64,000 nucleotides of DNA, from assembly GCF_042408815.1 (NCBI RefSeq), contig NZ_JBHOQR010000005.1, positions 3,828-67,827 on the forward strand, read 5' to 3'. Both the position numbers and the translations under genes were made by a program. The stretch comes from Thermoflexus sp. (GTDB lineage Bacteria; Chloroflexota; Anaerolineae; Thermoflexales; Thermoflexaceae). The stretch's first letter is position 1. Each line of letters begins with the position of its first letter. Positions 22,730-44,223 of the stretch are shown here, in pieces. The notes under the pieces were generated by a model. It searched no databases, was not told the DNA's origin, and worked only from the letters and a program-made list of their open reading frames with translations.

Positions 22730-22750
22730 AAGAAAAGGGTGGGATGCTCG

Positions 22751-25794: not shown

Positions 25795-26754
25795 TCAACG
25801 CAGGAATCCGCCGCTGAACTGTTTGATCACGATCAACACGGCCGGCCCCAGAAGGACGACAAACATGGCCGGGAAGATCAGGAAGACCAGCGGGAAGAGC
25901 ATCTTGATCGGGGCTTGTCGGGCCAATTCCTCCGCCCGCTGCCGGCGGCGCAGGCGCATCTGATCTGCCTGGATGTGAAGCACCTTGGCGATGCTGACTC
26001 CCAGCTGCTCTGCCTGAATGATCGCGGCCACAAACGTGGTCATCTCCGGTAGATCCACGCGGGCCGCCATATCCCGCAGCGCGTCCTTCCGGGAGCGCCC
26101 GAGGGCGATTTCCTGGAGCACCCGGGCGAAGGCTTTCCCCAGCTCGTTGTTCCATCGCTCCGCCACCCGCTGCATGGCCGCATCGAACCCCAGCCCGGCC
26201 TCTACGCAGATCACCAGCAGGTCCAGGGCGTCCGGGAGTGTTTTCAGGATCTCCTTCTTACGCCGGGCGATCTGTTGATTGAGCCAGAGCATCGGGTAAT
26301 AGAAGCCCAGTCCGCCGATAGCCAGGCTCAGGGCCCATCGTTGGAGGGCCGGAGCGCGCAGCAGCAGCACATAGATCAGGCCGAAAAGGAAGAAGCCGGC
26401 CATGATCCGCAGCCCAAAGAACTCCGCCGCCCCCAGACGGACCGGGTTGCCTGCCAGCTCCAGCCGGCGCCGCGTGTCCTCAATGATCGATTGAGGCGTG
26501 AAGCGGCTGATGAATTCCGCGATCTGACGGAGAATAGGGACAATCACCCTTTGGGTGAAGGGAATCGAAAGCTCGACCTCCTCCAGTGTCACTGGCACAT
26601 CCCGGGCAGCGAACTCCGCCAGACGGGCCTGGAGCACCTCTTCCTCACGGGGAGCGCCCAAGCCAATCACCAGGGCCACGGCGATCACCCCTACAGCCAG
26701 AATCCCCAGGACCAGAACCAGACTCAACATCTCCTTATACCTCGATCTGGACAA
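25795..26754 (-). CDS. tadC: Tad pilus platform protein TadC (T2SSF domain)
   Basis: N-terminal TM, T2SSF-type core (LPDALDLLVICVEAGLGFDAAM), C-terminal TM pair; downstream of tadB. Confidence 0.85.
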   Translation of the reverse strand: MSRSRYKEMLSLVLVLGILAVGVIAVALVIGLGAPREEEVLQARLAEFAARDVPVTLEEVELSIPFTQRVIVPILRQIAEFISRFTPQSIIEDTRRRLELAGNPVRLGAAEFFGLRIMAGFFLFGLIYVLLLRAPALQRWALSLAIGGLGFYYPMLWLNQQIARRKKEILKTLPDALDLLVICVEAGLGFDAAMQRVAERWNNELGKAFARVLQEIALGRSRKDALRDMAARVDLPEMTTFVAAIIQAEQLGVSIAKVLHIQADQMRLRRRQRAEELARQAPIKMLFPLVFLIFPAMFVVLLGPAVLIVIKQFSGGFLR

Positions 26755-27706
26755 TCCGTCGGATTACGAAGTAGCCGATCAGCATCATCACCGCTGTGCA
26801 GGCGACCATGAAGTAGCCTAGGATTCCACTGTTGAAGAAATTCAGCATATAGTTTCGGTTGATCCCAAACAGGACAAGGCCCAGCAAAATCGGGAGGACC
26901 ATCAACACATACCCGCTGAGGGTTTGCTGGGCCGTCAAGGCTCGGATTTCCCCCTTGATCCGCACCCGCTCCCGAATGGTGAAACTGATGGTATCCAGGA
27001 TCTCCGCCAGATTTCCTCCTATCTCGCGATGGATTAAGATCGCTGTGACCAGCATCTCCAGGTCATCGCTGTGCACTCGACGCAGCATGTTCTGGAGCGC
27101 CTGGTCGAGGGAGAGACCCAGCTGTTGCTCTTTCACCACCCGATCGAACTCAGTGGAGATCGGCGGAGGAAGCTCGCGGGCGACGGCCTCCATGGCCTGA
27201 AGAATGCTGTAGCCGGCGCGCAACCCATTGACCATCAGATTGATGGCATCGCCGAGCTGGGCATTGAAGGCCTGGAGCCGTCGTCGCTGCCGCCATGCGA
27301 CATAGAAGCGCGGCGCAAAGAAGCCCGCGATCAGACCCAGCATGGCCAGAGGAAGGAACCGGAAGAACAGCTGGGCCAAGAGGAGCCCTATCATCGCCGT
27401 CAGGATCTGGATGACCAGGAACTCTCCCGGTGTGACCTTCAGATCGGCCCGGGCCAGCTGAAGCCGCAGATCCTCCGCGAACCCCCGCCCGGCAATGGCC
27501 CGATTCAAGCTTTCGCTGAACGGCATCGTCCGGCGAGGAGGGGTTGGGCGAGACGGCCCCTCACCCCGACGCCCTGGACGAGGAGCGGCATATCGCTCCA
27601 GCCGCTCCACGACAACTTCCTCCTCTTCCCCGCCAAAGATATAGAGAAGCAAAAGGATGAGGATCAGAATCCCTCCTCCGACCAGCACATACGTTTGCCA
27701 GGCCAT
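26735..27706 (-). CDS. tadB: Tad pilus platform protein TadB (T2SSF domain)
   Basis: T2SSF-type core (LGDAINLMVNGLRAGYSILQAM); ATG 27706 (MAWQTYVL..) chosen; overlaps tadC start. Confidence 0.85.
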   Translation of the reverse strand: MAWQTYVLVGGGILILILLLLYIFGGEEEEVVVERLERYAAPRPGRRGEGPSRPTPPRRTMPFSESLNRAIAGRGFAEDLRLQLARADLKVTPGEFLVIQILTAMIGLLLAQLFFRFLPLAMLGLIAGFFAPRFYVAWRQRRRLQAFNAQLGDAINLMVNGLRAGYSILQAMEAVARELPPPISTEFDRVVKEQQLGLSLDQALQNMLRRVHSDDLEMLVTAILIHREIGGNLAEILDTISFTIRERVRIKGEIRALTAQQTLSGYVLMVLPILLGLVLFGINRNYMLNFFNSGILGYFMVACTAVMMLIGYFVIRRIVQIEV

Positions 27707-27812
27707 AGCTTCCCCCTGCATCTTTACATTTCCCACGGCCCGGAGGGATCGGGGAAGGGGAGAAGAGCCATCCCCTTCTGGAATCCGGGCCAGCCGGCAC
27801 AAGAACCGGTCG

Positions 27813-29213
27813 CTACCTTCGCCCGGCGCCGAAAATCGAGGGCGGCAGCCGGATGCCGGCTGCCTCTAAGCGGTCCATAAAGCGGGGGCGGATCCCAGTT
27901 GGGAGCAGGCGGCCAACGATCTTTCCACCTTCCATCCCGTATTGCTCGAACTTGAACAGCTCCGTGGTGGTGATCACCTCTCCTTCCAGCCCCTGGATCT
28001 CTGTGACCGAGATGATCTTACGGGAACCATCCCGCATGCGCGCCGTCTGGACGATCAGGTCGATCGCCATCGCGATCTGCTCCCGGATCGCCCGGTGGGG
28101 CAGATCCGTCCCCGCCATCAACACCATGTTCTCCAGACGGGCCAGGGCATCGCGGGGGCTGTTGGCGTGGATGGTGGTCATGGAGCCCTCATGGCCAGTG
28201 TTCATCGCCTGGAGCATATCAAAGGCCTCGCCGCCACGGCACTCGCCGACGATGATCCGATCCGGACGCATCCGCAGGGCGTTGATCACCAGATCCCGCA
28301 TGGTGATCTCGCCCTTCCCCTCAATATTGGGCGGGCGGGTTTCCAAAGTCACCACATGCTCCTGGCGCAGCTGCAGCTCCGCTGCGTTCTCAATCGTGAT
28401 GATCCGCTCCCCCTCCGGGATAAATCCGGAGAGGATGTTCAGCAATGTCGTCTTCCCGGAGCCGGTCCCGCCGGACACCACGATGTTGATCTTCGCCTGA
28501 ACGCAGGCCTTGAGGAACTCCATCACCTCGGGCGTGGCCGAGCCCAGGCGGATCAGGTCGTCCACCGTAAGCGGCGTACGGTAGAACTTTCGGATGGTCA
28601 CCACCGGGCCGATGAGGGAGATGGGCGGGATCACAATATTCACACGGGATCCGTCCGGCAACCGGGCATCCACGTAAGGCATGCTCTCATCCACCCGACG
28701 CCCCAGGGGGGCGACGATGCGCTCGATGATGCGCATTAAGTGCTCCTCATCCTCGAAGACCACATTCGTCCGCTCAATCTTCCCGTTGCGCTCGATGTAG
28801 ACCTTCTTGGGGCCGTTCACCATGATCTCGGTGATGGAGTCATCTTTCAGCAGGGGCTCCAGGGGGCCGAAGCCCAGGATCTCAGCGACGATCTGCTCAA
28901 AGAGCCGCTGTCGCTCCAGGCGACTGAGGACGATGTGATCCTCCATCAGAACAGCATCGAACTTCTCCTCGATCATCGCCCGCAACTCGTCTGTGCGGGA
29001 GAAATCGAGAGTAGGCTCCAGTTCCGAGAGAAGCTTCGCCTGGATACGGCTCTTGAGGTCCACATATGCGTCCCGCATCCCCCCCGTCGTAGGGAGCGGA
29101 CGACGGGGAGGGGCAGATGAGGGCTCAGGAGTCGGGACGGCGCGCGCCGGCTCAGGGTTCGGGGGAGTCGAGGGAGAGGGCTGGGCGCCCTGAATTCGCT
29201 TTAAGAGAGACAT
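27813..29213 (-). CDS. cpaF: Tad pilus secretion ATPase CpaF/TadA
   Basis: T2SSE ATPase: Walker A SGGTGSGKTT, Walker B/Asp box RIIVGECRGGEA, His box; disordered P/S-rich N-terminus. Confidence 0.95.
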   Translation of the reverse strand: MSLLKRIQGAQPSPSTPPNPEPARAVPTPEPSSAPPRRPLPTTGGMRDAYVDLKSRIQAKLLSELEPTLDFSRTDELRAMIEEKFDAVLMEDHIVLSRLERQRLFEQIVAEILGFGPLEPLLKDDSITEIMVNGPKKVYIERNGKIERTNVVFEDEEHLMRIIERIVAPLGRRVDESMPYVDARLPDGSRVNIVIPPISLIGPVVTIRKFYRTPLTVDDLIRLGSATPEVMEFLKACVQAKINIVVSGGTGSGKTTLLNILSGFIPEGERIITIENAAELQLRQEHVVTLETRPPNIEGKGEITMRDLVINALRMRPDRIIVGECRGGEAFDMLQAMNTGHEGSMTTIHANSPRDALARLENMVLMAGTDLPHRAIREQIAMAIDLIVQTARMRDGSRKIISVTEIQGLEGEVITTTELFKFEQYGMEGGKIVGRLLPTGIRPRFMDRLEAAGIRLPPSIFGAGRR

Positions 29214-29264: not shown

Positions 29265-30467
29265 TCAACGACTGCTCCGCTTTCGCGCCTCCTCGACCTC
29301 CTGAGGGGCGAACAGCGTCTCTTCGACCCGCCCGGCCAGCTGGAGGATCGCCTGAGCAATCGGTTTGGATCGCTGGGCCACCAATGGGGCCCCTTTATTG
29401 ATGGAGCTCAGGACGGTGATCTCATCCCAGGGGATCTGAGCGCTCACCGGATGCTTGAGGGCCTGCTCCACCATCTCCGCGGTGATCCCGAAGCGGCGAT
29501 CCATCTTGTTCATGATCATTCGAGTCTTCTGCGGTGGGTAGTTCAACTGGGTAATGACATCAAAGAACAGGCGAGCGTTCTTGATCGTCGGCACATCGGG
29601 GGTCACCACCAGCACGATCTGTTCTGCCTCGTCCAGGATCAGCAGCGTGGCATCCGTGAGCTGGGTGGCGGTGTCAATCACCACGATATCGAAGAGGGTT
29701 CGGGCCATGTGCAGGATCCGCCTCATCGCATCGGCGGTCACATACTCCGCCAGCTCCGGACGTGGGGGGGCCAGGAGCACTTTCAGCCCGGAGGCATGGG
29801 ACACCAGGGAGAGGGTGAAGGCCTCCGGATCCATCTCCTCCAGCTGGGCCAGGTCCGCAATGCTACGGGGCCCCTGCAAATTCAGGAACACCCCGATGTC
29901 TCCAAAGGGCAGGGAGGCGTCGATCAGGACCACACGGCGCTCTGGCTTTTGCAAAGCCACGGCAAGGTTCACGGCGATGAGCGTGGTGCCTACTCCTCCC
30001 TTGGGGCTGTAAACCGCCACGACCTTCCCTTGAGCGCCACGCCCACCTCCGGGCAACGGACCCGTTGGGGGCAGCACTGGCGGCGGCCGGCGCATCCGAT
30101 GGACCCGACGAACGGTGGCCACCAGCTCGTCGGCCGAGAAGGGTTTGGAGAGAAAGTCTCGAGCTCCGGCCAGCATCGCCCGCCGCAGATAGTCCGCATC
30201 GCTCTGAACCGACATCATCACCACCTGGGTGAGGGGCGCCACCTCCATAATTTGCTCCACCGCCGCGATCCCGCTCATCCCCGGTAGGTTGATGTCCAGC
30301 AGGACGACATCCGGCTGAAGGTCCCGGGCCAGCCGGATCCCCTCCTCCGCGCTGGCTGCGCTGCCCACCACCTCAATGTCCGGCTCAAACATGAGGAGCT
30401 TCTTCAAATTCTCTCGCGTCTCGCGGACATCGTCCACGATCAACACACGAATCCGCGCGTCCGCCAT
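29265..30467 (-). CDS. cpaE: CheY-like receiver domain fused to CpaE/TadZ-type ParA/MinD ATPase
   Basis: REC residues present (VDD, LLDINLPGMSG, MMSV, SKPF); CpaE-like P-loop SPKGGVGTT; ATG 30467 (MADARIRV..) chosen. Confidence 0.85.
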   Translation of the reverse strand: MADARIRVLIVDDVRETRENLKKLLMFEPDIEVVGSAASAEEGIRLARDLQPDVVLLDINLPGMSGIAAVEQIMEVAPLTQVVMMSVQSDADYLRRAMLAGARDFLSKPFSADELVATVRRVHRMRRPPPVLPPTGPLPGGGRGAQGKVVAVYSPKGGVGTTLIAVNLAVALQKPERRVVLIDASLPFGDIGVFLNLQGPRSIADLAQLEEMDPEAFTLSLVSHASGLKVLLAPPRPELAEYVTADAMRRILHMARTLFDIVVIDTATQLTDATLLILDEAEQIVLVVTPDVPTIKNARLFFDVITQLNYPPQKTRMIMNKMDRRFGITAEMVEQALKHPVSAQIPWDEITVLSSINKGAPLVAQRSKPIAQAILQLAGRVEETLFAPQEVEEARKRSSR

Positions 30468-30538
30468 CGGATCTCCTCGACGGGCACAGTCTGGAATGCC
30501 TAAACCGATCGGAGGCCCACCCTTGTCCCACCCGGAGC

Positions 30539-31549
30539 TCAGCGGCATGGCTCCCGGGCGAATTGATCGGGACAGCCTGGCGTGTTATCTCGAGCCAAGC
30601 CGAAGCGTCCCGGAGGCGGAAGCGTGATCCCGATCCGCTGGATCAGCCAGCCCAACGTCACTGGATCTGTCCGCACCAGCTGGTTGTCTGTCGGATTGCG
30701 CAAGGCCAGATCTATCACGGCCCCCGATTCCCGTAGCCACTGCAGGATCAAGGCGTCCTGAGGTTCCACCAGCAGCGTGATATATTGTTGACGCGGCATG
30801 GGCGTGGGCGTCGGTGTGGGCCCAGGAGCGGGGGTCGGTCCGGGGGTTGGAGCGGGGCGGCGAGGCGACTCGAAAGGCCCCACGGAAAGAACTTCCACGT
30901 TCTGGAGGACCAGCTGGCTGACTGGGAAGATCGTCTGCTGGTCCGGCTTCACCACAGCGGCCTGAGCGGCAGCCCCGGGCTCCACCCCCAGAGCTTTCAG
31001 CCGGCTGAAAAGATCCTCATCCAGGATCTGAGGATAAAACTCTCCCTCCGCCGCCTGCTTAACGGGAACAAACCGGAACGTCACCAGGACATCCACCCGA
31101 TCTCCAGGCGCCAAGTTGAAGGCCACCGCGCCCGCCTCATCCACCGGGATGGGGAAGGCCACTTTACCGGGTGGCACGAAGAAGCTGGCCTCGGATCCCC
31201 GCCGTCCCACCTCCGCAGGCTGGACCGTCAGATCCTCCGGCACGATGGGCTTCTGTCGGGGGATATCCACCCGCGCCACCTTCCCGATCACCGCCTTGGG
31301 ATCGGTAAAGGCGCCTTCTGGAAGAACCTCCACCGGCCATCCCCGCAGCGTCACATCCGATTCGCTGATCACGGCGCCACGAGGGATGTTCTGTGCGGCA
31401 ATCACAATGGATTGCAGGAAGGGCGGCGTAGGGGTGGCCGTTGGAGCAGGCCCCGCCGCAAAGCGCGGCAACAGCCATAGCGCCGCTCCCATCAAGACCA
31501 GGATCAGCAGGATCAGCAGCAACAGCGTCCGATTTCTGCGCCGGCGCAT
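30539..31549 (-). CDS. cpaB: Flp pilus assembly protein CpaB/RcpC family
   Basis: N-terminal TM anchor, SAF-like segment (IVIAAQNIPRGAVISESDVTLRGWP), RcpC-like C-terminal part with a Pro/Thr insert. Confidence 0.85.
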   Translation of the reverse strand: MRRRRNRTLLLLILLILVLMGAALWLLPRFAAGPAPTATPTPPFLQSIVIAAQNIPRGAVISESDVTLRGWPVEVLPEGAFTDPKAVIGKVARVDIPRQKPIVPEDLTVQPAEVGRRGSEASFFVPPGKVAFPIPVDEAGAVAFNLAPGDRVDVLVTFRFVPVKQAAEGEFYPQILDEDLFSRLKALGVEPGAAAQAAVVKPDQQTIFPVSQLVLQNVEVLSVGPFESPRRPAPTPGPTPAPGPTPTPTPMPRQQYITLLVEPQDALILQWLRESGAVIDLALRNPTDNQLVRTDPVTLGWLIQRIGITLPPPGRFGLARDNTPGCPDQFAREPCR

Positions 31550-31675: not shown

Positions 31676-31703
31676 ATTATATGCCTTTTCCAATCTTTCG
31701 GAA
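31676..31703 (-). promoter_or_regulatory. Candidate promoter for the cpaB-cpaE-cpaF-tadB-tadC operon
   Basis: Minus strand TTCCGA(31703-31698), 16-nt spacer, TATAAT(31681-31676); ~125-nt leader to the cpaB ATG. Confidence 0.35.
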
Positions 31704-31804
31704 TCGGCGCTGGGCCTCCGGGGTCAGGCTTTCCGGGTCATGCCTCTGTAGATGGCCAACAAGGAGCGGGCTTGATGGGATGGGGAAGCCCTCCCTTGAA
31801 AACA

Positions 31805-32350
31805 TCATCCTGAGGGATCTCCCCTTCGCCCGCGGGACCGCCGGTGCCATGCCAGCCAAACTGCCAGCAGCGCCAATCCCCCTCCGGCCACCGGCCCCCA
31901 CAACGCTCCCCCTGTCTGCGGCAACCGAGCCGCGTCCAGACGCGGCGGAACGGTTCCCGGCACAGGGCTGTGCAATTCCCCCGACGGGGGTGGCGGTGGC
32001 GGAGGAGGAGCAAGAGTCCCCGTGGCCACCGGGGTCGGGGATGGCATAGGGGTATACGTCGCCGTAGGCCCAGGGGGCAACGGAGTAGGCGTTAGACCGG
32101 GTGTGGGAAACCCAGAACCCGTGGGCGTCGCCGTCGGCATGGGCGTCCCGGTCGGCGTGTCCGTCGGGGTCGCCAGCGGAGTGGCCGAAGCAGTCAGGGT
32201 CAGAGTCGGAATAGGCGTGGGCGTCCAGGTCGGCGGCGGCGTAGGCGTGGGGCCGGGGGTCGGGAATTGCGCCCCGGCCGGCCGGACTTGGCTCCCCACC
32301 ACCCCCAGGATCAGCACGCTTCGCAGGCTGCTCCAGAGGAGTCTCCGCAT
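31805..32350 (-). CDS. LPXTG-type cell-wall-anchored Pro/Thr-rich stalk protein
   Basis: Signal peptide (..QVRPAGAQ), ~130-aa P/T-rich region, LPQTGG followed by a TM helix and basic tail HRRSRGRRG; this frame preferred over overlapping ORFs on those grounds. Confidence 0.7.
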   Translation of the reverse strand: MRRLLWSSLRSVLILGVVGSQVRPAGAQFPTPGPTPTPPPTWTPTPIPTLTLTASATPLATPTDTPTGTPMPTATPTGSGFPTPGLTPTPLPPGPTATYTPMPSPTPVATGTLAPPPPPPPPSGELHSPVPGTVPPRLDAARLPQTGGALWGPVAGGGLALLAVWLAWHRRSRGRRGDPSG

Positions 32351-32434
32351 GGGAACCTCGAATCAAACGGACGGCGCGTCCGAGACTGTTCGGTCGCGGT
32401 GGGCCCGACGGCATCGCCTGCAAGTTTGGAAAGC

Positions 32435-32462
32435 ATTATATCGCATTTCGATTCACCAGGAA
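32435..32462 (-). promoter_or_regulatory. Candidate promoter for the LPXTG gene
   Basis: Minus strand TTCCTG(32462-32457), 16-nt spacer, TATAAT(32440-32435). Confidence 0.3.
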
Positions 32463-32580: not shown

Positions 32581-35500
32581 TCATGGGCCGCGCAGGACCA
32601 GCGGGAGGAACATTCGGAAGCTCCACCCGATCCATACTTCAAGGGTCTCGTTATTGCCCTCGTTGACCTCCATCACACAACCCCGTGCCGGATCCCCTAA
32701 CCCGGGAACCGGCGCATCCACCATCGCCTGCAAACGGGAGATCGAGATCGCCTCAGTGGTCGTGTAGACGAAGGTCTGGGAGAGGCTTTCCCCGGGAGCC
32801 AATCGCTGGGCAGGGATGCTGAAATAGCGGCTGGCGGCAGGGTTCCCATTGATCTTCAAGCCGATCAGCATCCACCACGGCGCGCAGCCCAGGGTGCCGC
32901 TGAGCGGACGGGCGGTTCCAGGGCCAATGTTGGTCACCCTCAATGTAAATGTAAGCGTTCGAGTAGGGTTGTCTTCCTGATACTGAATCGAATCCGGCAA
33001 GATGGCGGCCGTGAGATCCGGCCCGGCCAGGGCGGTGACGTCGGAGGCCTGGAAGACATCCATCAGGGGAACGCCGGCCGTCCCGAAGGAGCGGGCAATG
33101 ACCGTGTTGGTGAAGGCGACCACGTCGGAGAGATTGGCGGAGACGCTGATTTGAGCCTTCTGGACGAAGGAAACCGTGGCCCGCGGGCCCAGGGCGGGCA
33201 GCGTGATCACTGCCTGCCCCCACCCGACGGGCAGGTCCACGAAAGCAATCCATGGCCACCCGGTCAGCGTGTCGGTAATCCGAACATCCGTGACCGTCAC
33301 CCACCCGGTATTGGTGACCGTGACTGTGTAATAAAGTACATCTCCGATATCCGCCTGACTCCGGCCATCGGTTTTGGAGATCTCGAGAGCGTAGGGCTGA
33401 CGCACCAGGTGGGCAACACTCCCAAGCGGAATCGGGATCGCACCGGAGAGGGCCGCGGTGGCGGTGAGCCACACGCCATCGGCAATGAAAGCGGGATCCG
33501 TGATCCGCACGGTCCAGGTGAGGGCGGCAGCCATCCCCGCGCTTAGGCCGGGCAGGTCCCAGCGGAAGGTTGGCCATGGGTCCGTGAGCACCGAACCCAT
33601 GGAGACCTGCACGCCATTGGGAATCGGGACGATCGGGCTGGGAAGCTGGCCGAAGATCTCCAAAGCCCCACTGGCTGCCGACGCCGTGTTCGTCACTCGA
33701 AGCGTATAGGTGAGCAACGCCCCCGGGGAAACGATACTCCCGGCAGGCGGAAGAGCGCCGAGCGTGCCGGTCAGCGCCGCCACCGGATGGATAACTGGGT
33801 TGCTGGCAAGCGAGCCGAACTCATCGGTTTGCAACACGGCCTGGTTCTGGATCTCGCCACCTCCTGCGGATACGGTGACGGCGAAGGAGAACGTCAGAAT
33901 CCCGCCCGGGGCAAGGGAGGCAATTTCCCCCAGCCATCCATTGGAGGCGACCGTCCACGAGAGGCCCCCGGAAGCGGAAGCGGAGCCTCCCACATAAGCG
34001 GTTCCGGTAGGGAAGAGATCGACCAGACGGAGGCCGTGCAGAGTGGCGCCACTGTCGTTCGTCAGGACAACCGTGTAGGTGATCCGATCTCCCGGCCGCA
34101 CCGAGCTTCCTCCCGGGGGCATGGCTTGCTTCAACCAGGTGGGTGGCCTGTCTGGGACCTCATAGCGCAGATCGGCCCGGAGCAAGGAAGGCGCCGTGAG
34201 GGGGTTTGTGGTGCTGAGCGCCACTTCATACTGTAAGGATTGAACATAGAGATTGAGGGGAATGGAGAGCGTAACCGCCCCCGTCTCAGTGAGCGGTGTC
34301 CATGCGCTCCAATCACTCCAGGGGAAGCCATCCTGGCTCTGGGATCGAATACGAACTGCGGCGTCTGTTCCGGGCGGGCGCATGAACTGAAGATCCAGAG
34401 TCAACAACAGCCGTCGCTGATCCAGATGGAAGGGCGGGGCCAGATAGTGCCCATTGGATACGAAGAGGCCTGCTCCCTCCGCGCTCAGGCGGCCGGCGTT
34501 GATATGGGTCAGCGGAATGTTGGCATACCGGCCTCCGATCACATAAACCCAACCATCCGGCAACACCACCATGGCATGGGCGCTGCGAGGCGGCGTGATC
34601 AGGCTGGTCGCCGTCCAAGTGATGACCTCCCCCGTGTCCGCGAGCACACCCGCTCGCACATCCCGGCTGGCATCGCTGAAGTTGCTCTGTAGCCCTCCAC
34701 TAGTCAGTAAGAGACCGCGATAACCAATGGCGGCCAGTTCCACCAGATTGTTATCCAGGAGCGCCGTGCGCGTGAAGGGTCCAAGGAGCGTCCCGTCCCC
34801 CAGAGGCGCGAACCAGACCTCGAACAGAGGCAGGCTGCTCGTCCCGGTCATTCCTCCGATCACATAAAGAGCACCCTGCTCGGCGACCGCTGCGTGCCGC
34901 CACAGGGGATAGGGAAGCGTCCACGAAAGGACTTGCCAATGGGTGATCTGACCCGTGACCGGGTCAGGCCGCGCCGCATAGATGAGGTCACGAACCTGGA
35001 AGCCCTCTGAAATCCCCCCCAACACATAGATCCATCCACCCCATGCGACAACCGCCATGTTCGTCAGGCTGATGGGCAGAGAAGCCGTCGTCGTGAACGG
35101 CCCCAGGGAGCCGTCCGGCTGGATCCGGGCGTAGACCACCATCCGCTGCGGCGCCCCCGGGGCGATGGCCGGCTGGTTTTGCCCGCCGATCACATAGAGA
35201 AAGTTGTTCACCACCACCGCCCCCCCATATGCGATCCCGGAAGGGAAGAAGTCCGCGAGGTTTGTCGAAACCGTCACCCAGGGAGTGAGATCATGATCGG
35301 AGCGGACGGTGGCCGATTGCACAAGGAATGGGCCTGCGATCATGTCGTTGCTCGAGGCCAATCCTCCCATGACATAGAGGCGGCTCGCCGTATAGACGGC
35401 CATATGACCCCAACGGGGGATCAAGCCAGCCGTTACCACCGTGGTGATCCACTCTCCACTCAGCCCGGCCCGAAGGAGGGAGACGGCGCCATCTCCCATA

Positions 35501-37037: not shown

Positions 37038-37069
37038 GGGAGCGCCTCCTGATCGGTCCGCATCACACC

Positions 37070-37558
37070 TTATGGGCACGCTCCGGATCCATGGTTGAGG
37101 GCCCGCTGCACCGCATAAGCCCGCAGCCTCACCTCCGGGCCGAACACCACCTGCATCACAGGCGTGATCATCGTAAATGAATATGAGGTGGAAACCGTGA
37201 TCGGCGTGCCGAAGCAGATCTGTCCCGGATTGTTCGGCATGATCACGATCGTGACCCGGTAGGGATCCAGAGGAGTTCCGGGCGTGTGCTGGATCGCGAT
37301 GAACGTTCGATCGTAAGCGTTATTGGGGGTCGCGCATGAAGGCCCGTCGGCCGCGCTGATGCAGCGCGGATTCATCGCCGCGTAGAGCGCTCCCTCGCCC
37401 GCCGCATCCTGGATCGCCACCCACGCCATATACATCCGGCCCAGATCCAGCACCCCGGTGAGCAACAGCAACAACACGGTGGCCGCCAGAGCGAACTCCA
37501 CCAGGCTCTGGCCGCGCTGGCGATGATCATGAAAGCAGTGATTCCAGCCGGATCCCAC
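37070..37558 (-). CDS. tadE: TadE-like pseudopilin
   Basis: ..RQRGQSLVEFALAATVLLLLLTGVLDLGRMY.. TadE N-terminal pattern; GTG start assumed. Confidence 0.75.
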   Translation of the reverse strand: MGSGWNHCFHDHRQRGQSLVEFALAATVLLLLLTGVLDLGRMYMAWVAIQDAAGEGALYAAMNPRCISAADGPSCATPNNAYDRTFIAIQHTPGTPLDPYRVTIVIMPNNPGQICFGTPITVSTSYSFTMITPVMQVVFGPEVRLRAYAVQRALNHGSGACP

Positions 37559-37576
37559 TGTCCTCTCCCCCCGCGC

Positions 37577-38137
37577 TCACGGCTTGGGCATGGCGATCCC
37601 GCTGATCGGAACCACGGAGCGCATCCCGGCGAAACGGAGCGGGAGGTTCGATACAAAGGGCCGGATCAGAGGGGTGGCCGCGCTCACCTGGGATTGAACG
37701 TCCACATAGACCAGGTCGTTCAGGGCCAGGACATCTGTAGTAGGCAGCCCGATCTGCGCCGGATCCGAAGAGCACCTGCCCAAGGGAAGGAAGGATCCAC
37801 TCCCATCGGGACGACGATACTCCACCGTGATCGTCACCTGGCTCCGAGGCGTCAACGCCAATGTCCCATAAGCCCGGTTCAGGACCTCGTTGCACTCGGC
37901 GATGGTCACCTTCCCGCGATCCGCATCATTGCTCCGATGGATGGTTACGGCGGCCGCTCGCAACGCTTCCCGCGCCGCGTTGGAGACCTCGGTGTAGATG
38001 AAGAGGACCCGTCCGAACTCCATGATGCCCAGCATGAACAGCAACAGCACCGGGAAGACCAGGGCGAACTCCACCAGGCCCTGCCCACGATTCCTGGATC
38101 CCCTCCACGATCGTCTCGCCAGCCCCCGGAAAGTCAT
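37577..38137 (-). CDS. tadE: TadE-like pseudopilin
   Basis: ..SRNRGQGLVEFALVFPVLLLFMLGIMEFGRVLF.. TadE N-terminal pattern. Confidence 0.8.
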   Translation of the reverse strand: MTFRGLARRSWRGSRNRGQGLVEFALVFPVLLLFMLGIMEFGRVLFIYTEVSNAAREALRAAAVTIHRSNDADRGKVTIAECNEVLNRAYGTLALTPRSQVTITVEYRRPDGSGSFLPLGRCSSDPAQIGLPTTDVLALNDLVYVDVQSQVSAATPLIRPFVSNLPLRFAGMRSVVPISGIAMPKP

Positions 38138-38226
38138 AAATCTCTTACCTCCTTTGAGGAAACCGCCTCGCCCGGCGGGGAGGTTACGGGTCCCGTTCTT
38201 CCCGCCTCTACCGGACCCTCGGGCTA

Positions 38227-38254
38227 TTGACGGTTTGAGAAATTTTAATATAAT
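38227..38254 (+). promoter_or_regulatory. Near-consensus sigma70 promoter for the plus-strand tad operon
   Basis: TTGACG(38227-38232), 16-nt spacer, TATAAT(38249-38254), in a 190-bp AT-rich divergent spacer. Confidence 0.55.
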
Positions 38255-38328
38255 GTGGAGGGAGAAGGGGCGAAAGAAGGTATATTTATAAACCGTTTTC
38301 GAGGGCCTTTAGGATACGGGAGGGATCG

Positions 38329-38931
38329 ATGCGTCGATGGACATGGAGAGGACGGAGAGCCCAGAGCATCGTGGAGCTAGCGATCCTGCTGCCCCTCTTC
38401 CTGATCCTCATCGCCGGCCTAACCGAACTGGGGTTCGCGATCGCTGCATATCTTTCTCTCCAGGATGCCGTGCGGGAGGCCGCCCGCTTCGGGGCCGACG
38501 GCGATCCTTGTCTGTATGCCGATCATCAGGAGGATCCCCGAGACCCTGGCGCCGTTTGCGACAGTGACCTGTTCATGACCCCGGTTTCCCAACGCTTCGA
38601 TGAAGCCTTCCGTCCATACACGATGAACGCGAGCCTGGGGGACGATCTGGTGATCTCCGCCTTCGGCATCCGACAGGACGGCACGCTGGCCTGGCGGCTC
38701 CCCCGCAATGCCCCTAACGGGTGGTCCCGTTTCCGCAATCGGAGCTCCCGGGTCACGGATGCGGCGATCGCCGCCCAGATCGGCCACTCCCCCAGCAAAG
38801 GGGTACTGGTGGTGGAGGCGTATTACCACTACCGCCAGCGTCTGGGCCTGTTCACCTGGGCGTTCCCGGAAATCATCCCGATGTATGCATCGGCCTGGAT
38901 GCCGCTGCCTTCGGTGGATCCGATGGAATGA
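38329..38931 (+). CDS. tadE: TadE-like pseudopilin
   Basis: ..RGRRAQSIVELAILLPLFLILIAGLTELGFAI.. TadE N-terminal pattern. Confidence 0.8.
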   Translation: MRRWTWRGRRAQSIVELAILLPLFLILIAGLTELGFAIAAYLSLQDAVREAARFGADGDPCLYADHQEDPRDPGAVCDSDLFMTPVSQRFDEAFRPYTMNASLGDDLVISAFGIRQDGTLAWRLPRNAPNGWSRFRNRSSRVTDAAIAAQIGHSPSKGVLVVEAYYHYRQRLGLFTWAFPEIIPMYASAWMPLPSVDPME

Positions 38932-38990
38932 ACGAGGCGCAGGTCGGCAGGGCTTCTCCGGCGCCCCAAGGGAGATCAGGAGGTGGAGCT

Positions 38991-40502
38991 ATGCGCCGCC
39001 GCGGGCAGATTGTGGTTCTCTTTGCCTTGATGCTGGTGGGGCTGCTGGCCCTGGCCGGCCTGGCGATGGATGGCGCCCGCCTCTATGCTGCCCGACACCG
39101 CCTGCAGCACGCCCTGGATGGAGCGGCCCTGGCCGGCTCCAACCAGTTCCGCGTCGGCCGCACCCTTGCCGATATCCAGCAGGCCGCCCGGGATTTCCTG
39201 ACCGCTCAGGGCTTCGATGTGGCCACCATCCGGGTCTATACATGCGATGACCCAGGCCCTTACGCCGCGGAGCTCTGCACCACTCCCCGTCGCAAGCTGG
39301 TGCGCGTCGAAGCCGAGGTCGTCGTCCCTATGACCTTCATGCGGGTGGTGGGTTGGTCGAGCGCGCGGCTCTCCGGCTCCGCGACCGGAGAGGCAGCCTC
39401 CGTCGATCTGGTGCTGATCATTGACAACTCGGAGTCAATGGCTTATGACACCCGGATGGTGCTCACTCAGGGTAACCCCATCGTCTGCATTCCCACGGAC
39501 TCCCCCAACCCCAATCCGGAATGCCCCAAACCCCAGAAGCCGCACTTCTGCAACCCCCATGATATCTGCGAGCCTTTCCGCTCCGTGCGCCAGGCGGCTC
39601 GCGAGTTCGCCGAGCGGATGTATTACCCCTACGATCGCGTAGCTGTGGTCTCCTTCGACCGTCAAGCCCGCCTGCTGGTGGATCTCAACGGGGGGACGAG
39701 CCTCGCCACTGTTCAGAACGCGATCCAGAGCATCCAGGTTTACGACCCCGCCCAGAACGCCCAAACTGCGAAATGCGCCGGGATGGATTGCACCTCTGGA
39801 AATTGCCGTCCGGTTTCTGTGCTGGTGCCGGGGCCAGACACTGACCCACGCCCATGCCCCAGTAGCAACGTCCAAGGAGCTCTCCGCTTGGCCTACAATA
39901 TCCTGGCCACCCAAGGACGGCCAGCGGAGACCGGCGCCCTTTGGGCCATCGTGATGCTGAGTGACGCCGCGGCCAACGCCACGGATCCCTCTCCAAGCTC
40001 GCCGGATCCGGTAGCGAGGGACTTCGGGCTCTGCCCTCGCTACAACCCACCCCCCAGCTGGGGTGCGCCCACCTGGTACTGGGGGGATCCGGGGTACCGT
40101 CCGTTTTGTCAGGATGGCGACTTCGAAACGCGTCATCCCCCATCTGATCCCCGATATGATGCGGAGGACGCCGCGCTCGATATGGTGGATGTGCTCCGAG
40201 AGGCCAACATCGTGGTCTTCTCCATTGGCTATGGCAGCGGAATGCACAACCTGAACGTACGCCCGGGCCAGGGACGGGATCCAGACGTTGGGGAGAAGTT
40301 CATGCGCTACTTGGCCGACAGCACCGATGGCAACAATCAGGCGGACTGCCTGCAGAGCGGAAGCGACTGGTTCAGCCCAGGGGCGGTCTGGAAGCCGCAG
40401 GGGCAGTCATGCAGCAACTATTTCTACGCCCCGGACGCTGCAACGCTGCAGCAGATCTTCCGTGAGATCGCCCGCCGGATTTTCACCCGTTTGAATCGAT
40501 AG
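38991..40502 (+). CDS. tadG: TadG-like N-terminal domain fused to von Willebrand factor A domain
   Basis: MRRRGQIVVLFALMLVGLLALAGLAMDGARLY.. (Tad N-terminus); MIDAS motif DLVLIIDNSESM; GGAGG RBS before ATG 38991. Confidence 0.85.
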   Translation: MRRRGQIVVLFALMLVGLLALAGLAMDGARLYAARHRLQHALDGAALAGSNQFRVGRTLADIQQAARDFLTAQGFDVATIRVYTCDDPGPYAAELCTTPRRKLVRVEAEVVVPMTFMRVVGWSSARLSGSATGEAASVDLVLIIDNSESMAYDTRMVLTQGNPIVCIPTDSPNPNPECPKPQKPHFCNPHDICEPFRSVRQAAREFAERMYYPYDRVAVVSFDRQARLLVDLNGGTSLATVQNAIQSIQVYDPAQNAQTAKCAGMDCTSGNCRPVSVLVPGPDTDPRPCPSSNVQGALRLAYNILATQGRPAETGALWAIVMLSDAAANATDPSPSSPDPVARDFGLCPRYNPPPSWGAPTWYWGDPGYRPFCQDGDFETRHPPSDPRYDAEDAALDMVDVLREANIVVFSIGYGSGMHNLNVRPGQGRDPDVGEKFMRYLADSTDGNNQADCLQSGSDWFSPGAVWKPQGQSCSNYFYAPDAATLQQIFREIARRIFTRLNR

Positions 40503-40538
40503 ACGGGTTTTCCGTCGCATGGCTGAGGAGGGGGAATC

Positions 40539-41429
40539 ATGCGCCGAATGGCCCAAGGGACGCTGGAGTTCGCCGTGGCCCTGCCGATCTTTCTCCTTCT
40601 GGTTTTCATGGTTATCGAGCTGGCCCGGGTGTTCTACGCGTGGGCGACCATCGAGAATAATGCCCGGGCGGCGGCCCGCTATCTCTCCACCGGGCAATAC
40701 GACCCGGCCTTCTGCCTCAGCGGCTGCGCCGATGAGGCGGATCGGGAACAGGCTCGGCTCCGGGCCGGCCTGGAACGAGGTCGGGAGATCCTTTACGGCC
40801 TCCTGATCACGCAGTTCGGAGAGCAAGCCGGGGGGCCGGGCTCCGATGCCCCAGGTTTCTATGGGGTCACGATCTGCAGCAGCCGGCCGGGCTTTGAGTT
40901 CGATCCGGCTACGCTGCGCTGCGTCCCAGGGAACGATGCCGGGGGCCCTGGGGATCGGGTCGTGGTGGTGGTCCGCCACAACCATATGATCATCACCCCC
41001 CTCCTCCGGCCCATTGTGGCCTATATCCCCCTGATCGCCCGCCGCGAGGTGATCAACGAGCGCTTCCGGACCGTCCGCCTGTTGGGGCTGCCGCCGGAGA
41101 TCCCGACGGTCGTGCCGCCGCCGACGCCTACGTTCACGCCGGCTCCCACGGATACCCCCACGCCCCCGCCGCCGCCGACGGCTACGCCGACGCCAACAGC
41201 TACCTTCACGCCCACGCCCACTCGCACCCCGACGCCGACGGTGTGCCCGCCCGGGGTTTGCACCCCCACCCCCACTCCTACACCCACCCGTACCTGGACG
41301 CCCACGCCGACTCCTACCCGCACGCCCACCCGTACCCCGACGCCAGTGTGGACGCCCACCCGCACGCCCACCCGCACCCCGACGTCCACGCCGACGATGA
41401 CGCCCACGCCGGGTGGCTTTGACGGGTGA
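40539..41429 (+). CDS. tadE: TadE-like pseudopilin with ~110-aa C-terminal Pro/Thr-rich tail
   Basis: [33 protein letters not shown].. then [28 protein letters not shown]...[11 protein letters not shown]. Confidence 0.75.
41110..41415 (+). repeat. Low-complexity Pro/Thr(-Arg) codon repeat within the tadE-like CDS
   Basis: Iterated ACG/ACC-CCN(-CGC) units encoding TPTPTRTP; it also creates a spurious Arg/Gly-rich antisense ORF. Confidence 0.8.
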
Positions 41430-41457
41430 ACAGAGCGAAAGAGAGGAGGAGTCAAAG

Positions 41458-42609
41458 ATGCAAAGGGGGAGGGTCGTCCGGCTTATGGGACTCATTCTAA
41501 TAGGACTGGGGCTTCTGGGCGCCCTGATCGGACGCGGGAGCGCCCAGACCCTTCCGCCCCCGCCCCCTCCTCCATGGCCGGCTCCTCCTGCCCCGGCGCC
41601 GGGGATGTATGCTGCTGAGACGCCTCCCAACGCCCGATGGCAGACCATGACCATCGGCATCGCGGATCCGGGAAACCCCTATCTCCCGATCACCCGGGAA
41701 AACCGGGTTGAGAATGCCACCGTGAGCTCCCTGCGCCTTGGGTTTGGAGGGCTCACATTCCCGGAGCTGATCACCCGTGTGGAGGCCTGGGCAGAGCCTC
41801 AGGATGGCAGCATCACCTGGACGGTGGAACCCACTGGGGTGGTGTTCTATAATGTGCAGCCGACTCATACCCTCTTCGCCTCCTGGGTCACCACGGCCTA
41901 CGCCCGATATGAGCCGCCGGAATACGAGATCACCGTTGGGACCATCGGGCGGGAGGGCTTTGATTTCGCCACCGGGATGGCGGTGCAATTGCCCGCGGGC
42001 GTCTATACGGTTACCTATGCCCGGATCGTCTCCACCAGCCACGAGGGGTTGAGCCCTTTTCCCCTTTACGTGCCCGGAGGCCTCGTCTGGCCGATGGCGC
42101 GCTTCACCACCACCCCAGAGAGCCGGGCATGGGTCACATATACCTTCCGCCTGGGGGATCTGCGGAATCGATCGGAAGCCACGCTCCCGGATCTGATCCC
42201 CCTCACCCTGACCTTGCGGATCCATAGGGGAAGCACTCAGGTGAACGCATGGATCCGCAATGCGGGCGCCGCCGCGGTCCCATCACGGGTCGGCGGCTTT
42301 CTGGTCGCTTTGCAGCAACGCGCCCCTGGCGATCCCCCGGCCAGCCCGACGGACGGCGGGGGGTTCGAGACGTGGATGCAGGGACCCACCGGTGTGTGGC
42401 TTCCTCCTTTGAGCCCCGGCCACGAGGTTCTGATCACGGGAACCGCCTCGCTCCAGCCCGGTCGATGCCTGTTCCTGAACGTGGATGTGGATCCCTTCGG
42501 GGAAAGCCCTCTGACCGGGCGGGTCTGGGAGGCCCGGGAGGACAACAACGTGGCCGGGATCTGCCCACACGTCCTCTTCCTCCCTCTGATCCTGCGCAGT
42601 CCTCCGTAA
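41458..42609 (+). CDS. Secreted/anchored protein with C-terminal CARDB-like domain, unknown function
   Basis: N-terminal signal/anchor (LMGLILIGLGLLGALIGRGSAQ), poly-Pro, C-terminal CARDB-like block (PDLIPLTLTL..NAGAAAV...EAREDNN), ends ..LFLPLILRSPP; GAGGAGGA RBS. Confidence 0.65.
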   Translation: MQRGRVVRLMGLILIGLGLLGALIGRGSAQTLPPPPPPPWPAPPAPAPGMYAAETPPNARWQTMTIGIADPGNPYLPITRENRVENATVSSLRLGFGGLTFPELITRVEAWAEPQDGSITWTVEPTGVVFYNVQPTHTLFASWVTTAYARYEPPEYEITVGTIGREGFDFATGMAVQLPAGVYTVTYARIVSTSHEGLSPFPLYVPGGLVWPMARFTTTPESRAWVTYTFRLGDLRNRSEATLPDLIPLTLTLRIHRGSTQVNAWIRNAGAAAVPSRVGGFLVALQQRAPGDPPASPTDGGGFETWMQGPTGVWLPPLSPGHEVLITGTASLQPGRCLFLNVDVDPFGESPLTGRVWEAREDNNVAGICPHVLFLPLILRSPP

Positions 42610-42699
42610 ATTCTCCCGCCTGCCCTCGCCTCCAGTAAAATCAACAACCGGGAAGGGACCTCCCGGACGGCACGCCGGAACAGGGAACCGGAGGCATGG

Positions 42700-44223
42700 A
42701 TGATCCGCCGGTGGGAACGCGGGATGATCGGATTCGGGGTGGCGTTGCTGGTCGCCTGCCTGGCCCGGCCGGTGATGGTGACCGTCATCGCGGACGGCCA
42801 GCGCCGCATCCTCTATGCCCGCGGTCCAACGGTCCGAGAGGCGCTGGCCCAGGCAGGCATCCTCCTCGGGGATCTGGATCGGGTTACGCCGCCGGAGAAC
42901 CTGCCCATTCGCCCCGGGATGGTGATCACGGTCACCCGTATCACCCAGACCCTGGAGGTACAGGAGGTCCCGATCCCGTTCCCCCGACAGATCCTGAAGG
43001 ACGCCCGGCTGGCTCCCGGGGAAAACCGCCTGATCCGCCGGGGCGAACCCGGCGTCGAACGGGTGACCGTCCGGATCACATGGGCCGATGGCCAACCGGT
43101 GGAGCGCCAGGAGATCCACCGGGAACGCCTGCGGGATCCGGTTCCCGAGATCGTGGCGGTCAGCTTGCTGGGCGAGGTGGTCTCTATGCCGATCTCCGGC
43201 ACGCTGGTCTTCCTGGCCCATCGAGACGCATGGCGCGTCGCTGGGGAAACGACCCGGATCCTGCCGCTCACGAACCTAGGGGATCTGGACGGACGGATCT
43301 TCACGTTGTCTCCCGATGGCGGCCTCCTCCTGTTCTCCCGCTCCCCCCTGACATCCCCCCGCCCGCTCCTGAACACCCTCTGGGGGCTGAACCTCCGCGC
43401 CGATCCGCCACGCCCGCAGCCAGCCGGGCTGGAAAACGTGCTCTGGCTGGAATGGTCCCCCCGGGGGGATCGTCTGGCCTTTGCCACTGGGGAGCCGAGC
43501 CCCGGGCCGCCAGGCTGGCGGGCGCATAACGACCTCTGGATTGGCCGATGGACAAACGGACGGATTGAAGCCCGCCAGGTGCTGACGCCGACCGCTGGCG
43601 GCCCTTACGGATGGTGGGGCATGGCCTGGGCCTGGTCTCCGGATGGCCGCCGTCTGGCCTTCGGGCGCACGGATGGGATCGGGATGCTGGATCTGGGGAG
43701 CCTACAAGTGACCATCCTGCTCACCTTCCCGGTTTATGAAACCCGGAGCGCCTGGGCCTGGGTGCCCGCCCTCGCCTGGTCCCCGGATGGCCGATACCTC
43801 GCTGCCCTCGTTCATGGCCCTCCCCGCTCCGGAGAGCCCCCCGAGCAATCCACCCGCTTTGATCTCTGGATCCTGGCCGTGGATGCCGGATGGGCGCGCC
43901 CGTTGATCGAGGATGTCGGGATATGGGCGGGCGTGCTCTGGAGCGACCAGGGCCTCTTTTTCGGCCAGGCCCATCAGCCCGAGGCCGGGGACGCTTCCCG
44001 TTATGACCTCTACTGGGCCGATCACGATGGGAGCGATCGACGGCGCTTATTCCCGCCAGAGGGGGAGATTGGCTTCGGCGGCCAGCCCGATATGCGCTGG
44101 GGACCCGACGGGCGAAGCCTCCTGGTGCGCTATCAGGGGGACCTCTACCGGATTGCCCTCCCTTCCGGCCGGATCGATCGCCTCACCGCTCGGGGGGACA
44201 TCGCGGCGATGGCATGGCGCTGA
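42700..44223 (+). CDS. Membrane-anchored DUF348-G5 domain protein fused to WD40-like (TolB/PD40-type) beta-propeller
   Basis: TM anchor; DUF348-like (VTVIADGQRRILYARGPTVREAL); G5 (LAPGENRLIRRGEPGVERVTVRITWADGQPVE); repeated WSPDGRxLAF/WGPDGRSL propeller blades. Confidence 0.8.
   Translation: MIRRWERGMIGFGVALLVACLARPVMVTVIADGQRRILYARGPTVREALAQAGILLGDLDRVTPPENLPIRPGMVITVTRITQTLEVQEVPIPFPRQILKDARLAPGENRLIRRGEPGVERVTVRITWADGQPVERQEIHRERLRDPVPEIVAVSLLGEVVSMPISGTLVFLAHRDAWRVAGETTRILPLTNLGDLDGRIFTLSPDGGLLLFSRSPLTSPRPLLNTLWGLNLRADPPRPQPAGLENVLWLEWSPRGDRLAFATGEPSPGPPGWRAHNDLWIGRWTNGRIEARQVLTPTAGGPYGWWGMAWAWSPDGRRLAFGRTDGIGMLDLGSLQVTILLTFPVYETRSAWAWVPALAWSPDGRYLAALVHGPPRSGEPPEQSTRFDLWILAVDAGWARPLIEDVGIWAGVLWSDQGLFFGQAHQPEAGDASRYDLYWADHDGSDRRRLFPPEGEIGFGGQPDMRWGPDGRSLLVRYQGDLYRIALPSGRIDRLTARGDIAAMAWR

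Follow-up and report, generated by a model that had tools for sequence, protein, structure and literature searches.

We analyzed a window of 64,000 nucleotides from the genome of Thermoflexus sp. (Chloroflexota, Anaerolineae; contig NZ_JBHOQR010000005.1 of assembly GCF_042408815.1) that harbors, between positions 25,795 and 44,223, a gene locus of a Tad (type IVc) pilus. The locus comprises a minus-strand operon for the core of the assembly machine, two sets of minor pilin genes located on the two sides of a divergent spacer, and several genes for surface proteins. The positions of these features and the domain matches that identify them are given in Table 1, and the homologous loci with which they were compared are denoted by L numbers. 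The GC content of the whole window is about 65%, and an identical 19.9-kb contig is present in the Logan assembly of SRR24490442.

Table 1. Features of the Thermoflexus tad locus and its immediate surroundings, in window positions (E, E-value)
Feature	Position	Gene call	Strand	Match or remark
hpf, ribosome hibernation factor, after comFC	24366-24905		minus
comFC, 25 bp downstream of tadC	25038-25769		minus	DZR_2 + Pribosyltran
tadC, platform protein	25795-26754	25795-26730, 311 aa	minus	PF00482 T2SSF, E 2e-20
tadB, second platform paralog	26735-27802	26735-27721, 328 aa	minus	PF00482 T2SSF, E 4.6e-21
cpaF/tadA, secretion ATPase	27813-29213		minus	PF00437 T2SSE, E 1e-65
REC::cpaE, receiver + TadZ/CpaE-type ParA/MinD ATPase	29265-30548	29265-30467, 400 aa	minus	Response_reg 98.9 bits + ParA/AAA_31/CbiA
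cpaB/rcpC with Pro/Thr-rich insert	30539-31549		minus	PF16976 RcpC, E 6e-15, + SAF
Sortase-substrate stalk protein (LPQTG), 181 aa	31805-32350		minus	TIGR01167 LPXTG_anchor, 17.6 bits (cut-off 15.9)
Terminator-like hairpin and T-run	32368-32382		minus	CGGACGCGCCGTCCG TTTGATT
Secreted Kelch + DUF11/CLIPPER/CARDB protein	32581-35730	32581-35676	minus	Pfam; tail ...MFLPLVLRGP-stop
Tail site of Kelch/DUF11 protein	32581-32610		minus
TadG-like large pseudopilin, triplet A	35727-37079	35727-37037, 436 aa	minus	PF13400 Tad, E 3e-9
TadE-like pseudopilin, triplet A	37070-37558		minus	PF07811, E 3e-12; N-terminus RG/QSLVEFAL
TadE-like pseudopilin, triplet A	37577-38137		minus	PF07811, E 4e-16; N-terminus RG/QGLVEFAL
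Divergent spacer, 191 bp	38138-38328			52% GC; no flp gene inside
Sigma-70-like promoter	38227-38254		plus	TTGACG-16-TATAAT
TadE-like pseudopilin, triplet B, first gene of plus-strand operon	38329-38931		plus	PF07811, E 2e-12; N-terminus RRA/QSIVELAIL
TadG::vWA large pseudopilin, triplet B, 503 aa	38991-40502		plus	PF13400, E 3e-12, + VWA, VWA_2
TadE-like pseudopilin with Pro/Thr tail (TadE-PT), triplet B	40539-41429		plus	PF07811, E 5e-12; tail ~110 aa, ends PGGFDG
Secreted Thermoflexus-specific protein, 383 aa	41458-42609		plus	No Pfam or NCBIfam match; tail ...LFLPLILRSPP-stop
Tail site of 383-aa protein	42577-42609		plus
Membrane-anchored DUF348 + G5 + PD40 beta-propeller protein	42700-44223		plus	Pfam

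The core operon

The minus-strand operon cpaB-REC::cpaE-cpaF-tadB-tadC, in which adjacent genes overlap or are separated by at most 51 bp, encodes the CpaF ATPase, the TadB and TadC platform pair, the TadZ/CpaE ParA-type ATPase and RcpC/CpaB, all identified with Pfam; each of the domain assignments that the original prediction had made for these genes was reproduced. CpaF is 95% identical to its counterpart in a Thermoflexus sp. metagenome-assembled genome (MAG; DATMAC010000304) and 64-74% identical to those of other Anaerolineae, and for TadC the corresponding values are 91% (Thermoflexus MAG L002) and 52-58%.

The CpaE protein begins with a receiver (REC) domain, in which the DD pair, the phospho-acceptor D, the S and the K align with D12/D13/D57/T87/K109 of CheY. 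The TadZ_N model yields only 22 bits with this protein, under the model cut-off, and TIGR03815 (CpaE_hom_Actino) matches it partially. Judged by the aligned residues, the N-terminus of CpaE is a canonical receiver domain and not the atypical receiver TadZ_N. The completeness of the receiver suggests that assembly or placement of the pilus is probably controlled by phosphorylation, with a histidine kinase encoded elsewhere acting as the gate. In the related Chloroflexota genome that contains locus L213, a HisKA_3 histidine kinase and a REC-GerE regulator (7923-9827) are encoded directly upstream of flp-rcpC-REC::cpaE and are a candidate phosphorylation input to the CpaE receiver; no such pair is encoded in the 64-kb window.

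Two triplets of minor pilins

The six pseudopilin genes of the locus encode four PF07811 and two PF13400 proteins, so that the TadE and TadG assignments, which the original prediction had named as refutable by hidden Markov model scans, are upheld. All six proteins have the class-III-like N-terminus that had been noticed earlier, that is, a basic leader and the motif [GA]/Q-x-x-[VL]-[EL], with [GA]/Q resembling a cleavage site, followed by a hydrophobic helix. The genes are arranged in two TadE/TadE/TadG triplets, A (35727-38137, minus strand) and B (38329-41429, plus strand). The TadG protein of triplet A combines the N-terminus NRG/QALVLIAIAF with a C-terminal domain that weakly matches DUF7305 (PF23981, E 5e-5), and the TadG::vWA protein of triplet B is a candidate tip adhesin; a PDB sequence search with both TadG proteins produced no meaningful match. 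The TadE, TadG::vWA and TadE genes of the plus-strand operon are the canonical TadE/TadF/TadG minor pilin set and not accessory novelties.

The Thermoflexus orthologs of TadE-PT (L082, L084 and L086) are 370-381 aa long and end in PGGYDG, such that the Pro/Thr C-terminal extension spans 110-190 aa and the PGG[FY]DG terminus is kept in all Thermoflexus orthologs. Pro/Thr inserts are also found in CpaB and in the LPXTG protein.

The two triplets diverge from the AT-rich spacer that had been described, with its TTGACG-16-TATAAT promoter, in the original prediction. The GC content of the spacer compares with ~63% locally, and the sigma-70-like promoter matches at 11 of the 12 positions. No riboswitch or other known RNA was detected in the locus with Rfam, the only matches in the window being a transfer-messenger RNA (tmRNA) and a tRNA elsewhere.

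Missing Flp, TadV and secretin

The observation that no Flp pilin, A24 prepilin peptidase or secretin is visible in the locus holds across the whole 64 kb. The Flp major pilin (PF04964; 45-80 aa; G/xxxxEY) was found neither in the locus nor in the window or the other Thermoflexus loci; no small open reading frame (ORF) that would be Flp-like by a G/xxxxE[YF] motif, or as a hydrophobic intergenic product, is present across the 64 kb, and tblastn with four Chloroflexota Flp sequences against the window retrieves TadE N-termini only. Neither Peptidase_A24 nor Secretin matches any of the ~55 ORFs of the window that were selected as probable genes, and a scan for the TadV motif GxGD[VI]K detects none in the window, although TadV was detected in many other loci scanned.

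The distribution of these genes in relatives puts their absence in perspective. With the L208 Flp as query, a search of an index of 5.8 billion proteins yielded more than 7,997 matches, the best 120 of which are near-identical Chloroflexota Flps, defining an extremely conserved family of 48-49 aa. L211 has an orphan flp gene surrounded by housekeeping genes, and L212 has a tandem pair of orphan copies. In L213, which comes from the same genome as L212, flp lies directly upstream of rcpC, and neither a TadE/TadG gene nor an A24 peptidase gene is found within 10 kb. Among more distant Chloroflexota, three flp genes followed by tadV are found in L013, the only relative with a linked TadV, and flp is also present in the tad loci L017 and L024. 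Given the orphan flp genes and the lack of a linked A24 peptidase in related Chloroflexota, unlinked Flp and TadV are the likeliest arrangement in Thermoflexus, and the fiber subunit, which had been considered unknown, would most simply be, by analogy with these relatives, the product of an unlinked flp gene elsewhere in the genome. That flp, tadV and secretin genes are missing does not make the locus non-canonical: such absences are normal in monoderm type IVc pili and in related Chloroflexota, and are the expected state in this phylum and not evidence of a new machine.

Conservation and gene order in relatives

The core cpaB-REC::cpaE-cpaF-tadB-tadC, followed by comFC-hpf, is conserved across Anaerolineae (L002-L009, L213). 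As had been anticipated for accessory genes that belong with tad genes, synteny extends to these genes as well: the plus-strand operon (TadE, TadG::vWA, TadE-PT, the 383-aa protein and the G5-propeller protein) is present in every Thermoflexus locus that covers the region, and the LPXTG stalk gene adjoins cpaB in all Thermoflexus loci that reach the cpaB side. The window shares block A (Kelch/DUF11-TadG-TadE-TadE) with L002 and Ca. T. japonica (L082), but the block is absent from the more divergent Thermoflexus MAGs L084-L087, in which the LPXTG gene directly faces the plus-strand operon. Block A is therefore a gain-or-loss module.

The best homolog of the Kelch region outside Thermoflexus is P0014 (Kelch + DUF11), which is 30% identical over its full length and is encoded in the 6.7-kb contig L208 with the order Flp-TadE-TadE-Kelch/DUF11 (with the same type of C-terminal tail, see below)-RcpC-REC::CpaE-CpaF. 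The L208 operon is headed by a classical Flp (GQG/LVEYALILVLVA...). Hence, two distant lineages share the placement of a Kelch/DUF11 gene between pseudopilin genes and rcpC; a Tad context is lacking for three Kelch relatives at greater distance. In L004 and L006 (Anaerolineae), the genes directly upstream of cpaB encode a CARDB protein, a tail-bearing secreted protein, a 200-aa protein, TadE and a TadG::vWA protein of ~730 aa.

Surface proteins and their C-terminal tails

The LPXTG protein that had been predicted next to cpaB is real, but the correct gene is the 181-aa frame; the 248-aa ORF initially assigned to it (31677-32423) was rejected as an out-of-frame reading of the Pro/Thr repeats. 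The protein consists of a signal peptide, a Pro/Thr-rich stalk of ~110 aa, the LPQTG motif, a membrane helix and an Arg-rich tail, and orthologs with LPETG or LPDTG occupy the same position in L002, L084 and L086. No sortase gene is present in the window. The terminator-like hairpin listed in Table 1 is preceded by a TATAAT-like box near 32440 and followed, after ~18 nt, by the start of the LPXTG gene; it could be the terminator of the Kelch gene, an attenuator or a chance match.

The Kelch/DUF11 protein (1,031-1,049 aa, 1031 aa by gene call) has orthologs in L002 and L082, and, like the 383-aa protein, carries a Sec signal peptide. Only 12 homolog clusters were found for the 383-aa protein, and those with an organism name belong to Thermoflexus (T. 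hugenholtzii, Ca. T. japonica, Thermoflexus spp.) or to a MAG labeled as Anaerolineae. The mean predicted local distance difference test (pLDDT) score of its AlphaFold2 model is 63, with 75-90 in the C-terminal domain, which matches the CARDB structure 3idu (probability 1.0, TMt 0.64-0.67); from the model, we are confident that this domain, the sole reliable part of the prediction, adopts the CARDB fold. The N-terminal beta-sandwich is modeled with low confidence and gives generic fold matches. Thus, both the CARDB-like and the G5/beta-propeller proteins of the original prediction stand, the former by its modeled fold and the latter by Pfam. The G5-propeller gene occupies the same position in the five Thermoflexus loci covering it, and homologs near tad genes were not found outside Thermoflexus in the loci compared; because its synteny is confined to the genus, its membership in the pilus system is uncertain.

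Both the Kelch/DUF11 and the CARDB-fold proteins end in [FL]FLPL[VI]LR plus 2-3 residues. The [FY]LPL[VI]LR tail is kept in all orthologs and in L208, and is found on unrelated proteins in L004 and L006. NCBIfam already curates this tail as NF050076 ("YLP-box putative sorting motif") and NF053834 ("ultrashort_CTERM"). On NF050076, the Kelch tail of the window scores 14.9 bits against a cut-off of 15; NF053834 (cut-off 10 bits) is passed by the CARDB-fold ortholog from L084 (13.1 bits) and by the Kelch homolog from L208 (12.6 bits), and no score on either model was reported for the CARDB-fold tail of the window (LFLPLILRSPP). A metagenome scan for the coding sequence of the tail gave 124 matches in 120 loci, 66 of them within 5 codons of a stop, with the extended consensus [YH]-R-[VI]-[YF]LPLVLR-N-x-stop and no membrane helix after it. 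The carriers are unrelated exoproteins, including beta-helix, DUF11, PKD and CARDB proteins, C25 and S8 proteases, an amylase and a 5'-nucleotidase, and Tad genes and TadE-like N-termini are absent from all 120 loci, which comprise 585 kb of flanking DNA. The idea that the tail is a Tad-specific cargo tag was therefore rejected: the carriers are diverse and the metagenomic tail loci lack Tad genes. Since the tail is general and curated, the Kelch/DUF11 and CARDB-fold proteins are generic surface or secreted proteins, and their export signals give no tie to the pilus.

In Chloroflexota DNA chosen without regard to the tail, tails are nevertheless more common near TadE/TadG genes, with 4 in 57 kb as opposed to 1 in 270 kb elsewhere (p roughly 0.004, or 0.02 if L004 and L006 are taken as one). 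This enrichment, together with the recurrence in L208, argues for a functional link with the pilus, at least in the case of the Kelch/DUF11 protein. Beyond the window, the tail motif was seen in L002, L004, L006, L013, L082, L084, L086, L208 and 66 metagenome loci (within L088-L207), and, among the genome loci L002-L087 and L208, only in those from Chloroflexota. A literature search for the literal tail string brought up no relevant paper.

Relationships with known Tad systems

With the Tad systems of Caulobacter crescentus (pilA-cpaA-F) and Aggregatibacter actinomycetemcomitans (flp-tadV-rcpCAB-tadZABCDEFG), the Thermoflexus locus shares CpaF/TadA, TadB and TadC, CpaE/TadZ and CpaB/RcpC, as well as TadE/TadF/TadG-type minor pilins with a G/xxxxE processing site. 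It differs from them in lacking the secretin (RcpA/CpaC), RcpB and TadD, with no flp or tadV in the window, in the fully canonical receiver of CpaE, which is degenerate in TadZ, and in the presence of two minor pilin triplets.

The closest parallels are the Tad clusters described in the same phylum. Chloroflexales possess rcpC-tadZABC, tadEEG and flp, and their pili have been seen by cryo-electron tomography (PMC7332563); a highly transcribed pilA-cpaBEF-tadBC cluster is known in Anaerolineales (PMC4877987); and a Tad cluster was described from the genome of Litorilinea aerophila (bioRxiv 10.1101/2025.08.19.671072). These clusters have the same core order and likewise no secretin. In contrast to the Thermoflexus locus, they include flp, whereas Thermoflexus adds the divergent second pseudopilin operon, the Kelch/DUF11 protein, the LPXTG stalk and the genus-specific CARDB-fold protein.

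The lack of a secretin, which had been proposed to fit a monoderm envelope, indeed has precedents in monoderm type IVc pili, from which secretin, RcpB and TadD are missing (PMC6916266). The pili of Bifidobacterium breve and Micrococcus luteus are similarly secretin-less, tadV is unlinked in B. breve, where it sits at another locus (PMC6916266), and components are duplicated in M. luteus. Unlike Thermoflexus, which keeps CpaB/RcpC, these systems reportedly lack RcpC and the REC::CpaE fusion and have flp in the locus.

For the two triplets, the most pertinent comparison is the Kil system of Myxococcus xanthus, with four Tip complexes of KilL/M/N (TadE/F/G-like) proteins (PMC12075869). TadE/TadF/TadG "Tip" trimers have been modeled as interchangeable tips in Myxococcus, Pseudomonas and other bacteria, and the Myxococcus major pilin KilP (mxan_5121) was overlooked until a genome-wide search for Flp-like genes (PMC12075869). 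As in Thermoflexus, there are several paralogous TadE/TadE/TadG triplets and a large TadG-type protein with a variable C-terminal domain. However, Kil belongs to a diderm predator, includes a secretin and is coupled to a type III secretion system-like complex, and no sequence orthology was found between the Kil and Thermoflexus tip proteins. Our literature searches turned up no functional study of the locus architecture described here.

Interpretation of the locus and alternatives

The locus is a genuine Tad locus such as previous work has listed in genomes of Chloroflexota (PMC7332563, PMC4877987, bioRxiv 10.1101/2025.08.19.671072), and its lineage-specific elaborations are the second tip module, the recurrent Kelch/DUF11 protein and the LPXTG stalk protein. 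It is likely, in our view, that this is the assembly locus of the Flp-type pilus of Thermoflexus, with flp and TadV encoded elsewhere and with two alternative tips. CpaF would power the assembly on a platform formed by the two paralogs TadB and TadC, in a cell without a secretin-gated outer membrane. By analogy with Myxococcus and other bacteria, we infer that the two triplets, A (TadE, TadE, TadG) and B (TadE, TadG::vWA, TadE-PT), formed by the six proteins with class-III signals, are alternative priming and tip complexes. Each triplet would prime assembly and cap the fiber, giving rise to two alternative adhesive tips, one of which (B) would expose the vWA domain and the other (A) the C-terminal domain of TadG with its weak DUF7305 match. 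The fiber subunit, a Flp of 48-60 aa, and the TadV prepilin peptidase would be encoded elsewhere in the genome. CpaB/RcpC is retained in the absence of a secretin, and a CpaB ring, similar to the periplasmic ring formed by Pseudomonas aeruginosa RcpC (PMC12307814), may guide the fiber across the multilayered envelope of Chloroflexota. The Kelch/DUF11 and CARDB-fold proteins would be exported by Sec and bear the phylum-wide YLP-box tag, and the Pro/Thr stalk protein would be anchored to the wall by a sortase. To judge by gene order, these three proteins are probably co-inherited with the machine and aid attachment or filament aggregation, without being its parts.

Several observations weigh against this reading. 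Neither flp nor tadV is found in the ~64-kb window or in the six related Thermoflexus loci (8-21 kb). In the homologous operons of L208 and L213, flp is the first gene, whereas the equivalent site here is the empty 191-bp spacer, so that Flp was either lost or moved in Thermoflexus. None of the best 120 of the more than 7,997 Flp matches is named Thermoflexus, a result that is uninformative either way. Finally, only synteny connects the surface proteins with pilus function.

The flp observations can be accommodated by a Flp-less machine, in which the Tad motor builds a short pseudopilus or fiber from TadE/TadG-type proteins that spans the wall in the manner of the pseudopilus in type II secretion and serves to display or release the neighboring surface proteins, a scenario that we consider very improbable. 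It would make use of six pseudopilin genes, including one TadE with a long, wall-spanning Pro/Thr tail, and of the clustering of tail-bearing proteins near TadE/TadG genes. However, orphan flp genes are common in relatives, and the YLP-box tail is found on proteases, amylases and beta-helix proteins in metagenomic loci devoid of Tad neighbors; furthermore, no Tad system is known to work without a major pilin. It is equally hard to credit that Flp was truly lost and that the Tad motor, with a secretin-less CpaB ring, presents the YLP-box and LPXTG proteins at the surface. If true, this would be much more interesting, because a Tad system would then have been converted, in a cell of monoderm type, to the display or secretion of proteins.

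A different function, as a DNA-uptake (competence) pilus with the core operon functionally coupled to comFC, appears improbable. A gap of 25 bp separates tadC from comFC, which has the same orientation; the two genes stay paired in Anaerolineae whose CpaF is just 64-74% identical, as well as in L213, and there is a precedent in M. luteus, where Tad-type pili are needed for transformation (Angelov 2015, as cited in PMC6916266). Against this, hpf always follows comFC too, so the block may be a conserved housekeeping set beside which the tad genes happen to sit; no comEA, comEC or dprA is present in the window, and the vWA, Kelch and Ig-like domains point to adhesion. The genes comF, hpf and prfB are neighbors in Bacillus subtilis as well, with flagellar genes between them. 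More credible, although still doubtful, is a smaller locus in which only the core and the two triplets belong together, the Kelch/DUF11, LPXTG, CARDB-fold and G5-propeller genes being unrelated and syntenic at the genus level. The confinement of the CARDB-fold protein to Thermoflexus, the failure to find G5-propeller homologs near tad genes outside the genus, the generic export signals (Sec with a YLP-box or LPXTG), the three Kelch relatives without Tad context and the terminal position of the G5 gene in its operon, after a gap of 91 to ~380 bp, are all in line with such an arrangement. Nevertheless, the Kelch/DUF11 gene lies between pseudopilin genes and rcpC both in Thermoflexus and in the distant L208, with the same architecture and tail at 30% identity; in L004 and L006, TadE-TadG are immediately preceded by a CARDB and a tail-bearing protein; and in every Thermoflexus locus the LPXTG gene separates cpaB from the pseudopilin genes. 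We retain the Tad pilus locus with co-inherited surface proteins as the preferred explanation.

Other features of the window

In all of the Anaerolineae loci examined (24366-25769 in the window; L002-L009 and L213), tadC is followed by a comFC-hpf pair of the same orientation, and in the window prfB is located on the far side of the Tad locus; comFC, hpf and prfB may represent an old housekeeping block beside which surface-appendage loci sit. Just past comFC and hpf, a 1,370-aa secreted protein with Golvesin_C, Amidase_3 (N-acetylmuramoyl-L-alanine amidase), fn3 and Big_13 domains is encoded (18617-22729, plus strand), flanked by genes for SH3_3 proteins (17705-18592 and 23849-24280) and for a GT4 MraY/WecA-like transferase (22739-23764), and this group of genes looks like a cell-wall remodeling cluster. 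Elsewhere in the window are a tmRNA gene (48779-49163, plus strand, 139 bits) and a tRNA gene (47353-47425, minus strand). The tmRNA gene is overlapped by a 697-aa ORF without a Pfam match (48495-50588, minus strand) that is probably spurious, and the far-upstream start of the RNase III ORF (46380-47468) overlaps the tRNA gene, so that the true start is probably later.

Implications

Knowledge of the type IVc pili of Chloroflexota comes nearly exclusively from gene lists, supplemented by a few micrographs, and none of these pili has been the subject of a genetic study. The Thermoflexus locus provides a compact, comparable example in which RcpC/CpaB is kept without a secretin, a complete receiver is fused to CpaE, two minor pilin sets lie side by side, with block A present or absent among closely related species, and a Kelch/DUF11 surface protein recurs inside the Tad operons of two distant lineages. 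For genome scans, the lesson is that missing flp, tadV and secretin genes are to be expected in this phylum and do not signify novelty. If the tip model is true, Thermoflexus would offer a simple system with a single membrane in which to test how adhesion is diversified by Tad tips.

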